Shown piece by piece: positions 18,501 through 27,500 of a stretch of DNA of 64,000 nucleotides. Within the stretch, counting starts at the first letter, position 1. Each line of letters starts with the position of its first letter. Source of the DNA: Escherichia coli (lineage in GTDB: Bacteria > Pseudomonadota > Gammaproteobacteria > Enterobacterales > Enterobacteriaceae); the NCBI RefSeq assembly GCF_051903065.1, contig NZ_CP178438.1. One strand, given 5' to 3'. The position numbers were made by a program.

Positions 18501-21500
18501 GAGGAATACGCCGACGACATACACAACCAGTGTCGCCAGAATCCCGGCATACGGCACATGCTGACGACTCATTTTCGCCATAAAACTCGGTGCGGAACCG
18601 CCCATCGCCATTGAGCGCAGAATACGTCCGGTGCAGTACAGACCTGAATTCAGGCTGGAGAGGGCAGCGGTCAGCACCACAATGTTCATAATGCTGCCGA
18701 TATATGGCACACCCAGTTTAGAGAAAAACGTCACGAACGGACTTTGCCCCGCCTGATACGCGCTCCACGGCAATAACATAACCAGCAACACCACGGAGCC
18801 GACGTAAAACAGGCCAATACGCCAAATCACACTGTTAATCGCTTTAGGCACCATGGTCTGCGGATCTTTACATTCTCCGGCAGCTGTACCCACCATTTCA
18901 ATGGAGGCAAAAGCAAACACTACGCCCTGAATCAACACCAGCGCAGGCAGCAAACCGTGGGGGAAGAAGCCGCCATTATCGGTGATTAAATGAAAGCCAG
19001 TGGTGTTGCCATCCAGCGGCTGACCACTACCGAGGAACACTGTACCCACGACCAAAAAGGTCACAATGGCGAGCACTTTAATAAGCGCAAACCAGAACTC
19101 CATCTCCGCAAACCATTTCACACCGATCATATTCATGGTGCCAACGATGGTAAGTGCAGCGAGCGCAAAGACCCACTGCGGCACGCCGCCAAACGCACCC
19201 CAGTAATGCATATACAGAGCGACGGCGGTAATATCAACAATCCCCGTCATCGCCCAGTTGATGAAGTACATCCAGCCAGCAACATAAGCGGCTTTCTCAC
19301 CCAAAAACTCACGGGCATAAGAGACAAAACTGCCACTGGAAGGGCGGTGTAGCACCAGCTCACCCAATGCACGCAGAATAAAAAACGAAAACAAGCCACA
19401 AATTAAATAAACCAGTGCCAGTGCTGGACCCGCCATTTGCAGTCGGGCTCCTGCACCTAAAAACAAGCCGGTGCCAATCGCGCCGCCAATGGCGATCATC
19501 TGTACCTGGCGATTGCCCATCGCTTTGTGATACCCCTCTTCGTGGGCATTAAGCCAGCGGCGTTTCGCGGCGTGTTGATCTGAAGTGTCGGTGTCGTGTT
19601 TACTCATTGCTCTCCCTGATTGCTTTAATGAAAAAGTCATATAAGTTGCCATGAACAATGTTTATTCATCCTGGCGATGATAGTTATCACCATTATTCTT
19701 TATGGGTATAAAACTATCGGCGCAGCATCCTACCCGTTATCGATAAACGATGCAAAACATCCCCTTACAATCCTGAAGGGGATTAATACAACTGACGAAA
19801 AAATGACAAATCCTTTTGCTGGTTAACCTGTGTACTGTCCTACACTTAATCTTTAAAAGATTGTGAGGGGCATATGATTAAGGTGTATGGCGTACCCGGA
19901 TGGGGCTCTACAATCAGTGAGCTGATGCTAACACTGGCTGATATTCCTTATCAGTTCGTTGATGTCAGTGGTTTTGACCACGAGGGAGCTTCACGCGAGT
20001 TATTGAAAACCCTGAACCCGTTGTGTCAGGTTCCGACACTGGCATTGGAAAATGACGAGATTATGACGGAGACAGCGGCGATTGCATTGATGGTTCTCGA
20101 TCGTCGCCCGGACCTTGCGCCACCGGTTGGGCGCGCCGAACGTCAGCAGTTTCAACGGCTATTGGTCTGGCTGGTTGCTAATGTCTATCCAACATTCACT
20201 TTCGCCGATTACCCTGAGCGTTGGGCTCCTGACGCACCCGAACAGTTAAAGAAGAATGTTATTGAATATCGTAAATCGCTTTATATCTGGCTGAATTCAC
20301 AATTGACCGCTGAACCTTATGCGTTTGGTGAGCAACTAACGCTGGTGGACTGTTATCTTTGCACTATGCGCACATGGGGGCCTGGGCATGAATGGTTTCA
20401 GGATAATGCCACGAATATCAGTGCGATTGCTGATGCTGTATGTCAGTTACCGAAATTACAAGAAGTATTAAAAAGGAATGTCATTATTTAACAATAATGC
20501 CGGAGGTTAATGTTAATGAATCACTGGCGTAGTTAACTGGATATCCATTTGTTTGCTATGAATAGTAATTAAAGTTGGTACAATTATTTATATGATTGAT
20601 GTAATTTCGTTTTTTATATGAAATATCAATTTAATATAATCCGAAAATAAAACATCTCTTCGCATGTAGAGAAACATGTCGATATGATAGTGCAGTGCAG
20701 ATCATGTCATCAGAGTAGGGCGGTAGCGTATTTAATCAGGGAAAGATTACGCAACGCTGCTTTTTTGTATTGAACGATTCGCATTTTATGTTTAAAAATT
20801 GCGATATTCCTTATTTCCTGAAGCTGTTTTTATTGCTTATACATGATCAAATACTCCTTACATAATTAAGGAGAACAAAATGGAACTTAATACACGCCAA
20901 CAATTTGTATTACTTAAATAGACCAGTGAAGGTACGTATCAGAATATCCGGTGAAGTGATTAATATTTCGTTGAATATTTCTCCGGATTTTTGAAACCTG
21001 CTGCTGTAGAAATTCTGAACAGGAGGAATTATGCCTTTAGCAGCCAAACTCACCGACAAAGGCACCCAGCACGACGGTTATTACGAGACCGTCATCACCG
21101 CCGGGTCATCCACCGTTTTTATCGATGGTCTCCCCGCAGCCCGCCAGGGAGATCCGCTGACGCCGCATGCTAAACCGAAGCATCCCCCTCATCCCCGTAA
21201 AATCGCCAGAGGCTCGTCAACCGTCTTTATTGACGGCCTGCCCGCCGCCAGAACCGGTGATGCCATCGACTGTGGTGGTGTGGTCATTGGTGGCGGTACG
21301 GTAAATATAGGCTGATATGTCTGAGAGGTATTTATGTCCTTAAAAGGTCTGCGCTTTACGCTGGAGATTGACGGCCAGGAGCCGGACACCTTTGCAGTGG
21401 TGAATTTCAGGTTAATCCAGAACCAGTCTTATCCGTTTGTGATGAGTGTGGATGTTGCCAGCGACTCTTTTATGCAGACGGCGGAGATGCTGCTGGAGAA

Positions 21501-24500: not shown

Positions 24501-27500
24501 TGAAGAATTAGTCCCGGCGGATGCGCCGCTGTGGCGAACAATCAATACGCCACAGGGTAAAGGCGTTGTTAACTTAGGGGCGAGAGATATCAGGGTTTAC
24601 AGCGACGGTGATTTTCCACACTGGACAGGGTGGAAACTGGTGAACGATGATGCGGACACCAACAGCCAGTGCAATTCACCAACAATCCTGTGTACAACCC
24701 GCAATGACCTAAGTCGGATGATTTGTCATTTTCCGCTAGAATGGGACAGCACCACCGTGGAATCACGGTTTGAGTGGCTGAAATCACCCAATGACGTATT
24801 GAGTAAGCCGATGACAGAGCCTGACTTGGATTTGCTGATAGAACACTGTAAGGCGCTTTGTTTGGTAGATAATCCGTTACCTGCCAGGCGTGTATGGCAT
24901 TTTGATCCCAGGCAGTTTATTGCACATTTCAGGAAATGTGGGTGGTTAGGAGAAAATGATATTATAAGTGTGGTAAGACGTTATCAAAATGCTTATCCCA
25001 TGACATCAGAACTTACAAGACCATTAAGTAAAGACACTCTAATTGAGCGGATTACTAGCCAAGGACAAAATAGCAGTGGTGAGGTGATAAGACCTGCAGG
25101 GTTGAAAAATGAACTGTCAAAGTCACTAAGGAAGTACTTAATTACAACCCCATTGCGGATTGCGCATTATTTCGGTCAGATGGCGAGAGAAACAGGCAGA
25201 TTTGCGTCTTTTATAGAGAATGGTGATTCGAGTTATTTTGATATGTATGAGCCAGGAACAGAACAGGGACTTAAGCTTGGAAATAATGTTGTTGGTGATG
25301 GTGCAAGATTTAAAGGCAGAGGTACCATACATCTAACTGGTCGTGAGAATTATAGAAATTATAGAAATTATGGAAAGTATAGAAATCCGTCAGATGATGA
25401 TTTTTTTACTACAGAACCCAATAACCAACTCCCAGTTGAAAATGCCTATTTTTCTTGCGATGCCGGGGGATACTTTTGGGCAAGTAAGCAAAAATACATA
25501 ATGGTAAGCCATCGATTGACACCTAGTGGTAGTTTAGGCGTTAATTATTGGGCGGATAAAGGATGTAGTTTGTCAGATGCCAGAGAAGTTACACGGCGAA
25601 TAAACCCAGCAGCAGATGGCTTCGATTTAGTGCGTTGGCCAGCATTTGAGCATTCTTGGTATGTATTGAATGATGAAATAACACCTCCACTTAATTACAT
25701 AAGGATTGTTTAAAACAATGAATTTTAAAAAAACAATAATCATTTCGGTAGGTTTGATATTTATTTCATTCTCTTTTGTGGCAAAGTGCTCTCAACTCAA
25801 AAATTTGAATAATTACTCAGTGATGCTTTGTGGAAAAGTGTCAAATAATATCCTGGATGATATTGGTGGTTATAAAGAAAGAGATAAAAAATCCGAAATG
25901 GTAGATTTACTTATATTAATTAGTAATGACGAGCCTAACGGTGTTTCTGAGACCAAAGTGATTTCTAATGGTAAAATATATTTTAAGGGGGAAAGTACGA
26001 TGAACTTGGATGCCTCATTCATTATGACAATAAATGGTGGAGTTCATACTGACACTGTCACTTATATATCAAAGAAGAATAAAATTATCGGGGGCTACTT
26101 TTATAATAATGAGAGTAAAACTGATAAGCTTAAGGAAGTATATATCTCAAACACAGGAACTGTATATCGGTAATGACTCCAACTTATTGATAGTGTTTTA
26201 TGTTCAGATAATGCCCGATGACTTTGTCATGCAGCTCCACCGATTTTGAGAACGACAGCGACTTCCGTCCCAGCCGTGCCAGGTGCTGCCTCAGATTCAG
26301 GTTATGCCGCTCAATTCGCTGCGTATATCGCTTGCTGATTACGTGCAGCTTTCCCTTCAGGCGGGATTCATACAGCGGCCAGCCATCCGTCATCCATATC
26401 ACCACGTCAAAGGGTGACAGCAGGCTCATAAGACGCCCCAGCGTCGCCATAGTGCGTTCACCGAATACGTGCGCAACAACCGTCTTCCGGAGCCTGTCAT
26501 ACGCGTAAAACAGCCAGCGCTGGCGCGATTTAGCCCCGACATAGCCCCACTGTTCGTCCATTTCCGCGCAGACGATGACGTCACTGCCCGGCTGTATGCG
26601 CGAGGTTACCGACTGCGGCCTGAGTTTTTTAAGTGACGTAAAATCGTGTTGAGGCCAACGCCCATAATGCGGGCTGTTGCCCGGCATCCAACGCCATTCA
26701 TGGCCATATCAATGATTTTCTGGTGCGTACCGGGTTGAGAAGCGGTGTAAGTGAACTGCAGTTGCCATGTTTTACGGCAGTGAGAGCAGAGATAGCGCTG
26801 ATGTCCGGCGGTGCTTTTGCCGTTACGCACCACCCCGTCAGTAGCTGAACAGGAGGGACAGCTGATAGAAACAGAAGCCACTGGAGCACCTCAAAAACAC
26901 CATCATACACTAAATCAGTAAGTTGGCAGCATCACCCATATTAGGAATCTGGGAAAGAACAAGGTGCGCCGCTTTTTTTGTACTAAATAATTCGCATTTT
27001 AGTCACGGCAGAGAAGAAATCCGTCTTCATATTGTTTGCGATGTTCCTGATGAACTTATTGATTTCACGTTTGAATGGAAAGGGCTGAAGAAATTATGCG
27101 TGGCAGTCTCCTTTCGGTCCATAATAGCAGAACAAAAGAAAGAGCCAGAAATGACGGTCAGATATTATATCAGTTCTGCTGATTTAACCGCAGAGAAGTT
27201 CGCCACAGCAATCCGAAACCACTGGCACGTGGAGAATAAGCTGCACTGGCGTCTGGACGTGGTAATGAATGAAGACGACTGCAAAATAAGAAGAGGAAAT
27301 GCAGCAGAATTATTTTCAGGGATACGGCACATTGCTATTAATATTTTGACGAATGATAAGGTATTCAAGGCAGGGTTAAGACGTAAGATGCGAAAAGCAG
27401 CCATGGACAGAAACTACCTGGCGTCAGTCCTTGCGGGGAGAAGGCTTTCGTAATCTTGCCCTGGCATTATTGTCGTAAAAACGCATTACCGGACACACGA

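Follow-up and report, generated by a model that had tools for sequence, protein, structure and literature searches.

A module of four co-oriented genes lies between yncG and a partial ISAs1 element next to pptA in a 64,000-nucleotide stretch of Escherichia coli DNA (assembly GCF_051903065.1, contig NZ_CP178438.1), which is referred to here as the window. As the original prediction had stated and a six-frame listing of open reading frames (ORFs) confirms, the genes encode a PAAR protein, a VgrG, a large effector and a small protein with a signal peptide. The arrangement is very probably an auxiliary ("orphan") cargo module of a type VI secretion system (T6SS), specifically of T6SS-1, in which the two spike proteins are followed by an effector of the TseP/WHIX family and a periplasmic immunity protein, all at the yncG-pptA hotspot. 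Positions of all features are collected in Table 1.

Table 1. Features of the module, of its flanks and of the T6SS-1 cluster in the matching genome. Positions are those of the window unless another sequence is named; aa, amino acids.
Feature	Position	Strand	Description
yncG	19874-20491		Immediately left of the module
AT-rich intergenic region, yncG to PAAR gene	20492-21030	.	539 bp, ~32% GC, no ORF of at least 60 aa; presumed promoter region
ISAs1 left-end remnant	20729-20890		~160 bp; 85-91% identity to sequence just 5' of the ISAs1 transposase genes of L010 and L011
PAAR spike-tip protein	21031-21315	+	94 aa, two GLPAAR motifs
VgrG gene	21334-23481	+	715 aa
VgrG conserved core, residues 1-689	21334-23399	+	gp27-like hub, gp5 OB fold, beta-helix; T6SS-1 type
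Cargo-specific VgrG tail, residues 690-715, and stop codon	23400-23481	+	Left edge of swapped cassette
Effector gene	23632-25713	+	693 aa; WP_226156858
Effector N-terminal module, residues 1-440	23632-24951	+	WHIX/TseP-N-type, M23/LytM-like fold; predicted VgrG-tail loading, possibly Zn-dependent amidase
WHxxxH motif, W41-H46 (W41-H42-G-G-V-H46)	23752-23769	+	Invariant in 40 homologs
Variable linker/recombination zone, residues 441-490	24952-25101	+	Directly after conserved HFRKCGW motif; from here on, C-terminal identity no longer tracks N-terminal identity
Effector C-terminal toxin domain, residues 491-693, and stop codon	25102-25713	+	GH19-type lysozyme/endolysin fold
Catalytic Glu pair (predicted)	E520 25189-25191, E529 25216-25218	+	Invariant in 40 homologs
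Immunity gene (cognate, predicted periplasmic)	25718-26173	+	151 aa; ATG at 25718, 4 bp after the effector stop at 25713
IS1A copy, frameshifted transposase	26169-26935	-	Terminal repeats GGTAATGACTCCAACTTATTGAT at 26169 and ATCAGTAAGTTGGCAGCATCACC ending at 26935; insA/insB ORFs; RefSeq
Partial ISAs1 (H-repeat, ydcC-like)	26936-27466	+	97-98.5% identity to the L010 (FDAARGOS_144) and L011 copies; "incomplete" in RefSeq
tssM	16953-20480 of NZ_AP045789.1 528001-578000		In-frame stop after codon 693 of ~1175
Cluster tssI (vgrG)	37183-39580 of NZ_AP045789.1 528001-578000		Split into three ORFs
IS903B	35294-36262 of NZ_AP045789.1 528001-578000		Inserted between tssB and hcp

The 5.7-kb module region is 100% identical in two complete E. 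coli chromosomes, those of strains 23CRST027 and 23CRST031. Positions 492-64000 of the window align with the first of these (NZ_AP045789.1, hereafter the matching genome) at 99.99-100% identity, and the window is, judged by this alignment, E. coli chromosome.

Both spike proteins are recognized by curated models. The PAAR protein scores 157.8 bits against NF033420 (T6SS_PAAR_dom; cutoff 124), covering residues 1-94 of 94, and matches phrog_281 at 6e-26. VgrG scores 596 bits against TIGR03361 (cutoff 186) and 417 bits against TIGR01646 (cutoff 122), with domain matches to Phage_GPD (4e-74), Phage_base_V (6.5e-14) and Gp5_trimer_C (1.9e-21). The two assignments, originally made from the sequence alone, are thus borne out by profile searches. 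The same PAAR accession, WP_001127493.1, is also annotated in strains with other cargo.

No T6SS core gene is annotated in RefSeq over positions 492-64000, and the original prediction was right to call the module an orphan within the window. Elsewhere in the matching genome, a T6SS-1 cluster is located ~1.29 Mb from the module, beside tRNA-Asp (aspV). The cluster contains hcp, tssM, tssA, vasI, tssH, dotU, tssK, tssJ, tagH and tssG-B, followed by hcp, tssI and cargo. Because the core of the module VgrG is 94-96% identical to pieces of the cluster VgrG, up to residue 687, the module VgrG is a T6SS-1-type spike that is an orphan by position only. No PAAR gene is annotated within the cluster, and therefore the PAAR protein of the window may be the only one.

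The cargo part of the module has been swapped. VgrG residues 1-689 are 95% identical to the VgrG of a strain carrying different cargo; at the DNA level, homology to strains with other cargo stops at position 23399, in VgrG codon 689, and at the protein level it stops at the same residue. The tail that follows consists of an acidic linker and then ...ETRVKFMFS-COOH. GC content drops from here on and falls stepwise along the module (VgrG, 55-62%; effector, 37-49%; last ORF, 31-32%). A GC-rich VgrG beside AT-rich effector and immunity genes had been noted at the outset and ascribed to a swapped cargo, and the breakpoint now gives that proposal a position. The pattern of homology indicates that VgrG tail, effector and immunity gene are exchanged as a unit by recombination inside the conserved VgrG core. 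A smaller unit, made up of the toxin C-domain and the immunity gene, appears to be exchanged among members of the effector family after the HFRKCGW motif. The homolog from Salmonella salamae, which has the most similar toxin domain, is 55% identical to the window effector in its N-terminal part versus 88% in its C-terminal part.

The effector ORF opens at a TTG at 23626, yet every homolog begins MIISPP, and the start is for this reason placed at the ATG at 23632. The long ORF of the original prediction is therefore present, with 693 rather than 694 aa. An alignment of 40 homologs is the basis for all statements on residue conservation and for an AlphaFold2 model, which has a predicted local distance difference test score (pLDDT) of 87.2 and a predicted template modelling score (pTM) of 0.89; pLDDT is lowest at residues 459-461. 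Foldseek comparison of the whole architecture with AFDB50 gives template modelling (TM) scores of 0.8-0.95 for proteins of Photorhabdus, Salmonella, Yersinia, Klebsiella, Pseudomonas, Burkholderia, Cupriavidus and Acinetobacter, and to judge from these models the architecture is widespread. Most of the AFDB50 matches are named "M23" or "hydroxyethylthiazole kinase," and elsewhere in databases the family bears the names "M23 family metallopeptidase," "kinase," "predicted chitinase," "Pyocin R, lytic enzyme" and "membrane protein." One of the AFDB matches, an 1161-aa "Rhs element Vgr protein," looks like a fusion of VgrG with a WHxxxH-type domain. Literature on the kinase name in connection with T6SS and on yncG together with vgrG, and a paper on a Chromobacterium T6SS effector, contain no description of the family.

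The C-terminal part of the effector resembles cell-wall hydrolases. Residues ~495-665 match GH19-type phage endolysins (PDB 9ms7, 6.6e-9; phrog_9506, 1.4e-20), and residues 543-621 match 8xcl_A, which is TseP-C, at 5.7e-5. The modelled domain is related by Foldseek to 9ms7_A with a TM score of 0.77, a root-mean-square deviation of 2.4 Å and 28% identity, and also to 9eoi and 4ok7. Six residues are invariant (E520, E529, G562, R563, G564 and T569), as is a GRG..LTG signature. GH19 endolysins have a pair of catalytic Glu residues spaced by nine residues, as are E520 and E529. Because the Pfam Glyco_hydro_19 model does not match the effector even at E values up to 10, a check by this profile, which had been proposed together with the hydrolase assignment, would have looked negative; the PHROG endolysin profiles, the PDB endolysins and the fold nonetheless agree. 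The C-terminus is best regarded as a GH19-type lysozyme homologous to TseP-C, which supports the view of the effector as a peptidoglycan hydrolase.

The N-terminal domain has a more complicated affiliation. H42, H46, H114 and H147 are invariant in 40 of 40 homologs. The Pfam model Peptidase_M23 matches residues 44-157 weakly (E = 3.3e-4), and Foldseek relates the modelled domain to lysostaphin (1.2e-6) and to LytM, the LytM domain of EnvC, Csd2 and ShyA (2e-4 to 1e-3), with TM scores of ~0.6 to M23 domains. When a profile of residues 1-170 is compared with the PDB, the best matches are spurious DARPins and M23 chains score E ~0.7, which is not significant, so the M23 relationship rests on fold and motif spacing. 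By that spacing, and in LytM numbering, H42 corresponds to H210, H46 to D214, H114 to H260 and H147 to H293. Three of the five active-site positions of canonical M23 enzymes keep His (H42, H114 and H147). The canonical motifs are absent: the Asp of HxxxD is replaced in H42-x3-H46, and the first His of HxH, at the position matching LytM H291, is A, G or E in all 40 homologs and never His. The "M23 peptidase" of the original prediction therefore stands as a fold and as a Pfam similarity, and fails in its catalytic motifs. The domain is not a canonical M23 endopeptidase but a WHIX/TseP-N-type domain with an altered metal site.

For comparison with the WHIX class, sequences of Va01435 (1-452; Vibrio alginolyticus) and Awe1 (1-452; Aeromonas jandaei) were recovered from the structure files of Fridman et al. 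(PLoS Biol 2025, PMC12135965). In Va01435, the WHIX founder, W41-H42...H46 is found at positions identical to those in the window effector. The family profile aligns with Vibrio WHIX region 1 at a probability of 98.4% (hhalign, E = 6e-15) and with the WHIX region of Awe1, residues 166-302, at E = 2.6e-12. It does not match the N-terminal toxic M23 blade of Awe1, which carries canonical HxxxD and HxH motifs. Over its full length, the profile aligns with 19 Vibrio WHIX effectors at a probability of 99.7% (E = 5e-27, 531 columns), in an alignment that does run through WHIX region 2.

The gene after the effector encodes a protein that begins MNFKKTIIISVGLIFISFSFVA, a typical Sec signal peptide, as expected from the earlier description of a signal-peptide ORF 4 bp downstream. 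The protein belongs to no family in Pfam, NCBIfam, PHROGs or PADLOC, and a search of 1.8 billion representatives yields only 19 relatives. PADLOC matches none of the four module proteins, and so there is no sign of a role in phage defence. A comparison of 12 downstream proteins reveals similarity groups that track the type of the toxin C-terminus, not N-terminal similarity. The first group comprises the proteins of the window, E. coli Z1323HEC0462, the Buttiauxella orphan and Serratia; the second, those of Salmonella and Intestinirhabdus; and the third, those of a 787-aa E. coli paralog, Yersinia and Hafnia. Unrelated immunity proteins accompany effector N-domains that are 73-82% identical. 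These groupings support the prediction that the downstream gene behaves as an immunity gene specific for the toxin C-domain. The immunity ORF that had been proposed thus has the expected signal peptide and co-varies with toxin type, but in the window it is not intact, being cut at its 3' end by IS1.

The effector gene is found just 3' of a VgrG gene in nine further loci, which belong to a second E. coli paralog, Buttiauxella, Salmonella, Yersinia, Enterobacter, Chromobacterium, Hafnia, Serratia and Intestinirhabdus. The gap between VgrG stop and effector is 3-15 bp in six loci, 64-69 bp in Buttiauxella and Salmonella, and 150 bp in the window. The loci of Yersinia, Enterobacter and Hafnia are within T6SS clusters, where the effector gene directly follows ClpV-VgrG. 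With the window included, the carrier VgrG ends in FS in nine of ten loci: RVKFMFS (window), PVKFFFS (E. coli paralog), VRFMFS (Buttiauxella), VKFIFS (Salmonella), KRWLFS (Yersinia), SYFLFS (Enterobacter), QRYSFS (Hafnia), ARSSFS (Serratia) and AKFSFS (Intestinirhabdus); the Chromobacterium carrier ends HPFSE. Three control VgrGs from E. coli, which share the core and carry other cargo, terminate in NCNEHQ, ADIDLD and GHYGRE. The PAAR-like carriers located 5' of genuine WHIX effectors in Vibrio and Aliivibrio end NFSD and IFSD (L018 2531-3988, L019 2534-3991), and the published tail of VgrG4 is ...KVSFSGR (PMC12135965). In this sample, WHxxxH effectors are accompanied, across unrelated carrier types, by an F-S that is terminal or no more than two residues away from the carrier C-terminus, and it is possible that this F-S represents a general loading signal.

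Among characterized proteins, TseP of Aeromonas dhakensis (Wang et al., eLife 2025, PMC11893102) is a close parallel. Its gene also directly follows that of its carrier VgrG and precedes one immunity gene; the large N-domain has an H-x3-H motif (H19/H23, corresponding to H42/H46 in the window), the C-domain is an SPN1S/GH19-type lysozyme, and GC content descends from VgrG to N-domain to C-domain, as Wang et al. noted. TseP differs in having 845 aa with a 603-aa N-domain, compared with 693 aa and a 440-aa N-domain in the window, and its amidase, lysozyme and VgrG2-binding activities were measured, whereas those of the window effector are predictions. Moreover, TsiP is reported to inhibit both domains of TseP (PMC11893102), whereas the immunity proteins of the window family track only the C-domain type. 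The invariant H42, H46, H114 and H147 fit the first four (H19, H23, H109 and H339) of the six Zn-site residues of TseP by motif.

With WHIX effectors such as Va01435 and Awe1, the window effector shares the WHxxxH motif, a homologous region 1, a C-terminal toxin of the chitinase-like class (the commonest in PMC12135965), polymorphic C-termini, a spike gene directly 5', a signal-peptide immunity gene 3' and a carrier tail containing F-S, as in VgrG4. The differences include the carrier, which is a VgrG in the window and a PAAR-like protein in Vibrio, and the M23-like barrel, which is contiguous in the window effector (YMHL at residue 114, xxH at 147) and in Va01435 has ~180 inserted residues (YMHL at 119, VHIE at 300). 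Canonical M23 enzymes (LytM, lysostaphin and ShyA) have the same fold, and are set apart by the active-site replacements described above. Tse4 of Acinetobacter baumannii is a bifunctional peptidoglycan effector that combines a lytic transglycosylase and an endopeptidase under one immunity protein. By description, it likewise joins glycan- and peptide-cleaving parts in one T6SS cargo effector, and by description only it differs in its domain families and in lacking a WHxxxH domain. On these comparisons, the window effector belongs with TseP and the WHIX effectors, and the module would work like published auxiliary modules composed of VgrG and cargo.

Published work suggests how such a module might operate. 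The WHIX domain suffices for T6SS secretion and requires the last 14 residues of the upstream VgrG4 (PMC12135965), and TseP-N binds VgrG2 and can restore T6SS assembly (PMC11893102). In the module, VgrG would form the spike and PAAR would sharpen it, and the effector N-domain would grip the C-terminal tail (...RVKFMFS-COOH) of its own VgrG. The T6SS-1 machine encoded elsewhere in the genome would then fire the loaded spike, after which the GH19 domain would cut glycan strands in the periplasm of the prey; the N-domain may contribute amidase activity, as in TseP. The immunity protein would guard sister cells. Identities of the parts, domain homologies, breakpoints, co-variation and the tail motif come from this analysis. 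Tail loading, secretion and the enzymatic activities are carried over from published relatives.

Some points weigh against this account. In an AlphaFold2 model of a fusion in which the effector was joined through (GGS)10 to the last 36 VgrG residues, the tail was disordered and stayed at pLDDT 21-33, and docking of the tail is therefore unsupported by modelling; the fusion is a weak test, given that the true partner is a VgrG trimer and that the tail lacked a paired alignment. Region 2 of the bipartite WHIX motif (residues 271-476 of Va01435, in a definition that demanded at least 70% profile coverage; PMC12135965) is not detectably similar when tested alone, as residues 160-445 compared with Va01435 127-477 give a probability of 2%. 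The accession WP_226156858 and those of six relatives, seven in all from the window subfamily, are absent from the published WHIX tree of ~4,400 proteins, in which the founder WP_005373349 was found as a positive control; some of these absences may be due to the August 2023 cutoff of the database. Formal membership in the WHIX class is thus only partly demonstrated: region 1 and the architecture agree, region 2 is covered by the full-length alignment but gives no match by itself, and the protein is missing from the catalogue. Finally, the two 2025 papers disagree: in PMC12135965 the N-domain only loads the effector, and in PMC11893102 it is an enzyme.

It is tentatively possible, although we consider it doubtful, that the WHxxxH domain is a re-purposed LytM/M23 domain that holds the carrier tail (...aromatic-x-F-S) in the old substrate groove and metal site as a pseudo-substrate. 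A single pocket would in that case mediate loading on VgrG or PAAR-like carriers and, once the toxin is released, act on or bind peptidoglycan stem peptides, which would reconcile the "loading domain" and "amidase" views. Such an origin would also explain why the domain is fused almost only to cell-wall toxins. The enterobacterial subfamily, with its compact, uninterrupted barrel and its absence from the catalogue, would then represent the minimal form of the domain.

Whether the module is active today is a separate question from what it is, and the balance tips slightly toward a relic that neither kills nor protects in this strain and is carried by inertia, a state that concerns present activity and is compatible with the identity of the module as auxiliary T6SS-1 cargo. 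In the matching genome, the T6SS-1 cluster looks degenerate, with an interrupted tssM, a vgrG in three pieces and an IS903B insertion (Table 1). The intact immunity protein of other strains, Z1323HEC0462 and 33F4 among them, has 167 aa and continues ...GTVYHINIESVSDDKCLDKFK, where the window reads ...GTVYR-stop; the last 17 codons, one Cys among them, were lost to an IS1 element whose own transposase is frameshifted. An in-frame 9-bp duplication at ~25348-25356 adds N-Y-R to the effector right after the GH19 "GRGTIHLTGRENY" signature; none of the 39 aligned homologs has it, and neither do the E. coli alleles of 690 aa. On the other side, PAAR, VgrG and effector are full-length open frames with 99-100% identity to their counterparts in other strains, the truncated immunity protein retains 150 of 167 residues, and a lone stop in tssM might have arisen recently, might be suppressed or might reflect an error in sequencing. 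Truncation of the immunity gene, the duplication in the effector and the damage to the T6SS-1 cluster together suggest that this lineage can no longer use the weapon. The module looks half-decayed in this strain and is probably not deliverable, with module and machine both decaying.

The insertion sequences that flank the module record part of this decay. At its left end IS1A truncates the immunity gene, at its right end it adjoins an ISAs1 with an internal deletion, and its borders lack a target duplication, which suggests an IS1-mediated adjacent deletion of ~0.3 kb. The partial ISAs1, which adjoins pptA, is the right border of the variable region. ISAs1 left-end sequence recurs to the right of the module (26942-27001), including a direct repeat with 86% identity (20761-20788 and 26974-27001); because this sequence occurs on both sides, the variable region is apparently bracketed by ISAs1 ends.

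The auxiliary-module interpretation assigns toxicity to the C-domain, and it is unlikely that the effector instead carries two toxins, with the M23-like N-domain itself acting as a cell-wall peptidase and with two immunity proteins needed. Such an arrangement has precedents in the WHIX effectors with M23 blades (PMC12135965) and in TseP-N, a Zn-dependent amidase needing H19, H23, H109, H339, H359 and E539, beside the lysozyme TseP-C (PMC11893102). The Pfam match, the M23/LytM fold and the four invariant histidines are consistent with it. However, HxxxD and HxH are absent from all 40 homologs, and the profile matches the WHIX region of Awe1, not its M23 blade. The space between VgrG and effector holds no gene that might encode a second, upstream immunity protein, and N-domains that are 73-82% identical stand beside unrelated immunity proteins. 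The WHIX domain alone was also reported to be nontoxic in the periplasm (PMC12135965).

It is highly improbable that the GH19 domain is a chitinase directed against fungi or arthropods, or one with a nutritional role. GH19 is classically a chitinase family, some homologs are named "predicted chitinase" and Streptomyces chitinase C is among the fold matches, but the best matches in sequence and fold are peptidoglycan-cleaving endolysins and the T6SS lysozyme TseP-C. Moreover, a signal-peptide immunity gene that co-varies with the C-domain implies toxicity to the producer's own periplasm. An origin as a lysis module of a prophage tail or R-type pyocin, in which spike-like proteins accompany a GH19 "endolysin," can be set aside almost entirely, because the homology of VgrG and PAAR to phage baseplate parts (phrog_281), the phage endolysins among the best C-domain matches and the homolog named "Pyocin R, lytic enzyme" are outweighed by T6SS-specific models passed far above their cutoffs, core E. 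coli flanks free of phage genes, a VgrG core shared with the T6SS-1 cluster, and effectors that follow ClpV-VgrG inside T6SS clusters of other genera.

The effector is found in 19 of 5,426 complete genomes and a full-length immunity gene in 33, and so ~14 genomes hold an orphan immunity copy. A 163-bp immunity remnant is present in 119 more of these genomes, including ATCC 25922. In FDAARGOS_144, the orphan immunity gene is still joined to the last 234 bp of the effector gene (L010 7624-8311). Strain Z1323HEC0462 has, in order, VgrG, DUF2169, a PAAR-like toxin with immunity gene, ISAs1, a VgrG fragment (608-706), the effector and an intact 167-aa immunity protein. Other strains have at the yncG-pptA site DUF2169 and a PAAR-like toxin, or other unnamed proteins. 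Buttiauxella sp. WJP83 has a complete effector-immunity pair of another type and, behind it, an orphan effector C-terminal fragment with its immunity gene (L009 5962-7507); the 344-aa fragment is 78% identical to window residues 351-693, and its immunity gene is 49% identical. Displaced toxin tips are the layout of Rhs and CDI loci, and the Buttiauxella fragment is alike. The locus thus illustrates cassette turnover, in which VgrG tail, toxin and immunity gene move jointly and orphan immunity genes persist in other strains.

The yncG-pptA interval is presumably the rhsE position of K-12 and, we assume, also the site of the "vgrE orphan locus" of EDL933; we take the module to sit at this RhsE/vgrE hotspot of E. 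coli. In EDL933, that locus (Z2253-Z2262) has Rhs-type cargo (PMC12981562, 2026), which fits a remark in the original prediction linking vgr genes to Rhs elements. The two loci share a VgrG followed by cargo, H-repeat/ISAs1 elements and, in some lineages, signs of effector decay; the toxins of the EDL933 locus are of the Rhs (YD-repeat) type, whereas the window has a TseP/WHIX-type lysozyme effector. No Rhs gene or YD-repeat core is among the annotated genes covering positions 492-64000, as had been predicted, and the resemblance to an Rhs element is limited to the position and the H-repeat/ISAs1 pieces.

As a T6SS auxiliary cargo module at an E. coli hotspot, with a toxin family characterized in 2025, the locus contains nothing categorically new. 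It provides three leads, namely, a misnamed enterobacterial subfamily that is apparently missing from the WHIX catalogue despite sharing motif and architecture, the F-S carrier tail as a candidate loading signal that could be used to predict pairs of cargo and carrier, and a possible LytM ancestry of the WHxxxH domain.

In the annotation of the matching genome, rlhA ... ansP and yncG precede the four module genes, which are labelled PAAR, Vgr, "M23 family metallopeptidase" and hypothetical. To the right are IS1A, the partial ISAs1, pptA, yddH, nhoA, the narZ operon and the fdn operon ... gadC; the flanks are core E. coli genes, without phage genes. The stretch between yncG and the PAAR gene, described originally as 540 bp, AT-rich and noncoding, agrees with that description to within one base pair, except that it contains the ISAs1 remnant. 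Promoter-like sites occur in it at 20613-20640, 20659-20688 and 20838-20866; counts from promoter and terminator scans are at chance level, and no promoter is therefore claimed.

Elsewhere in the window, the Rfam SECIS_3 selenocysteine insertion element is found inside fdnG (44697-44755, plus strand; 84.3 bits versus a gathering score of 63), as expected for formate dehydrogenase-N. The matching-genome annotation also places a hicAB toxin-antitoxin pair at ~2913-3551, the orphan toxin gene ortT at ~11016-11189 and, at ~38890-41480, the type III secretion system effector gene espR1 together with two leucine-rich-repeat gene fragments, beside ompC.

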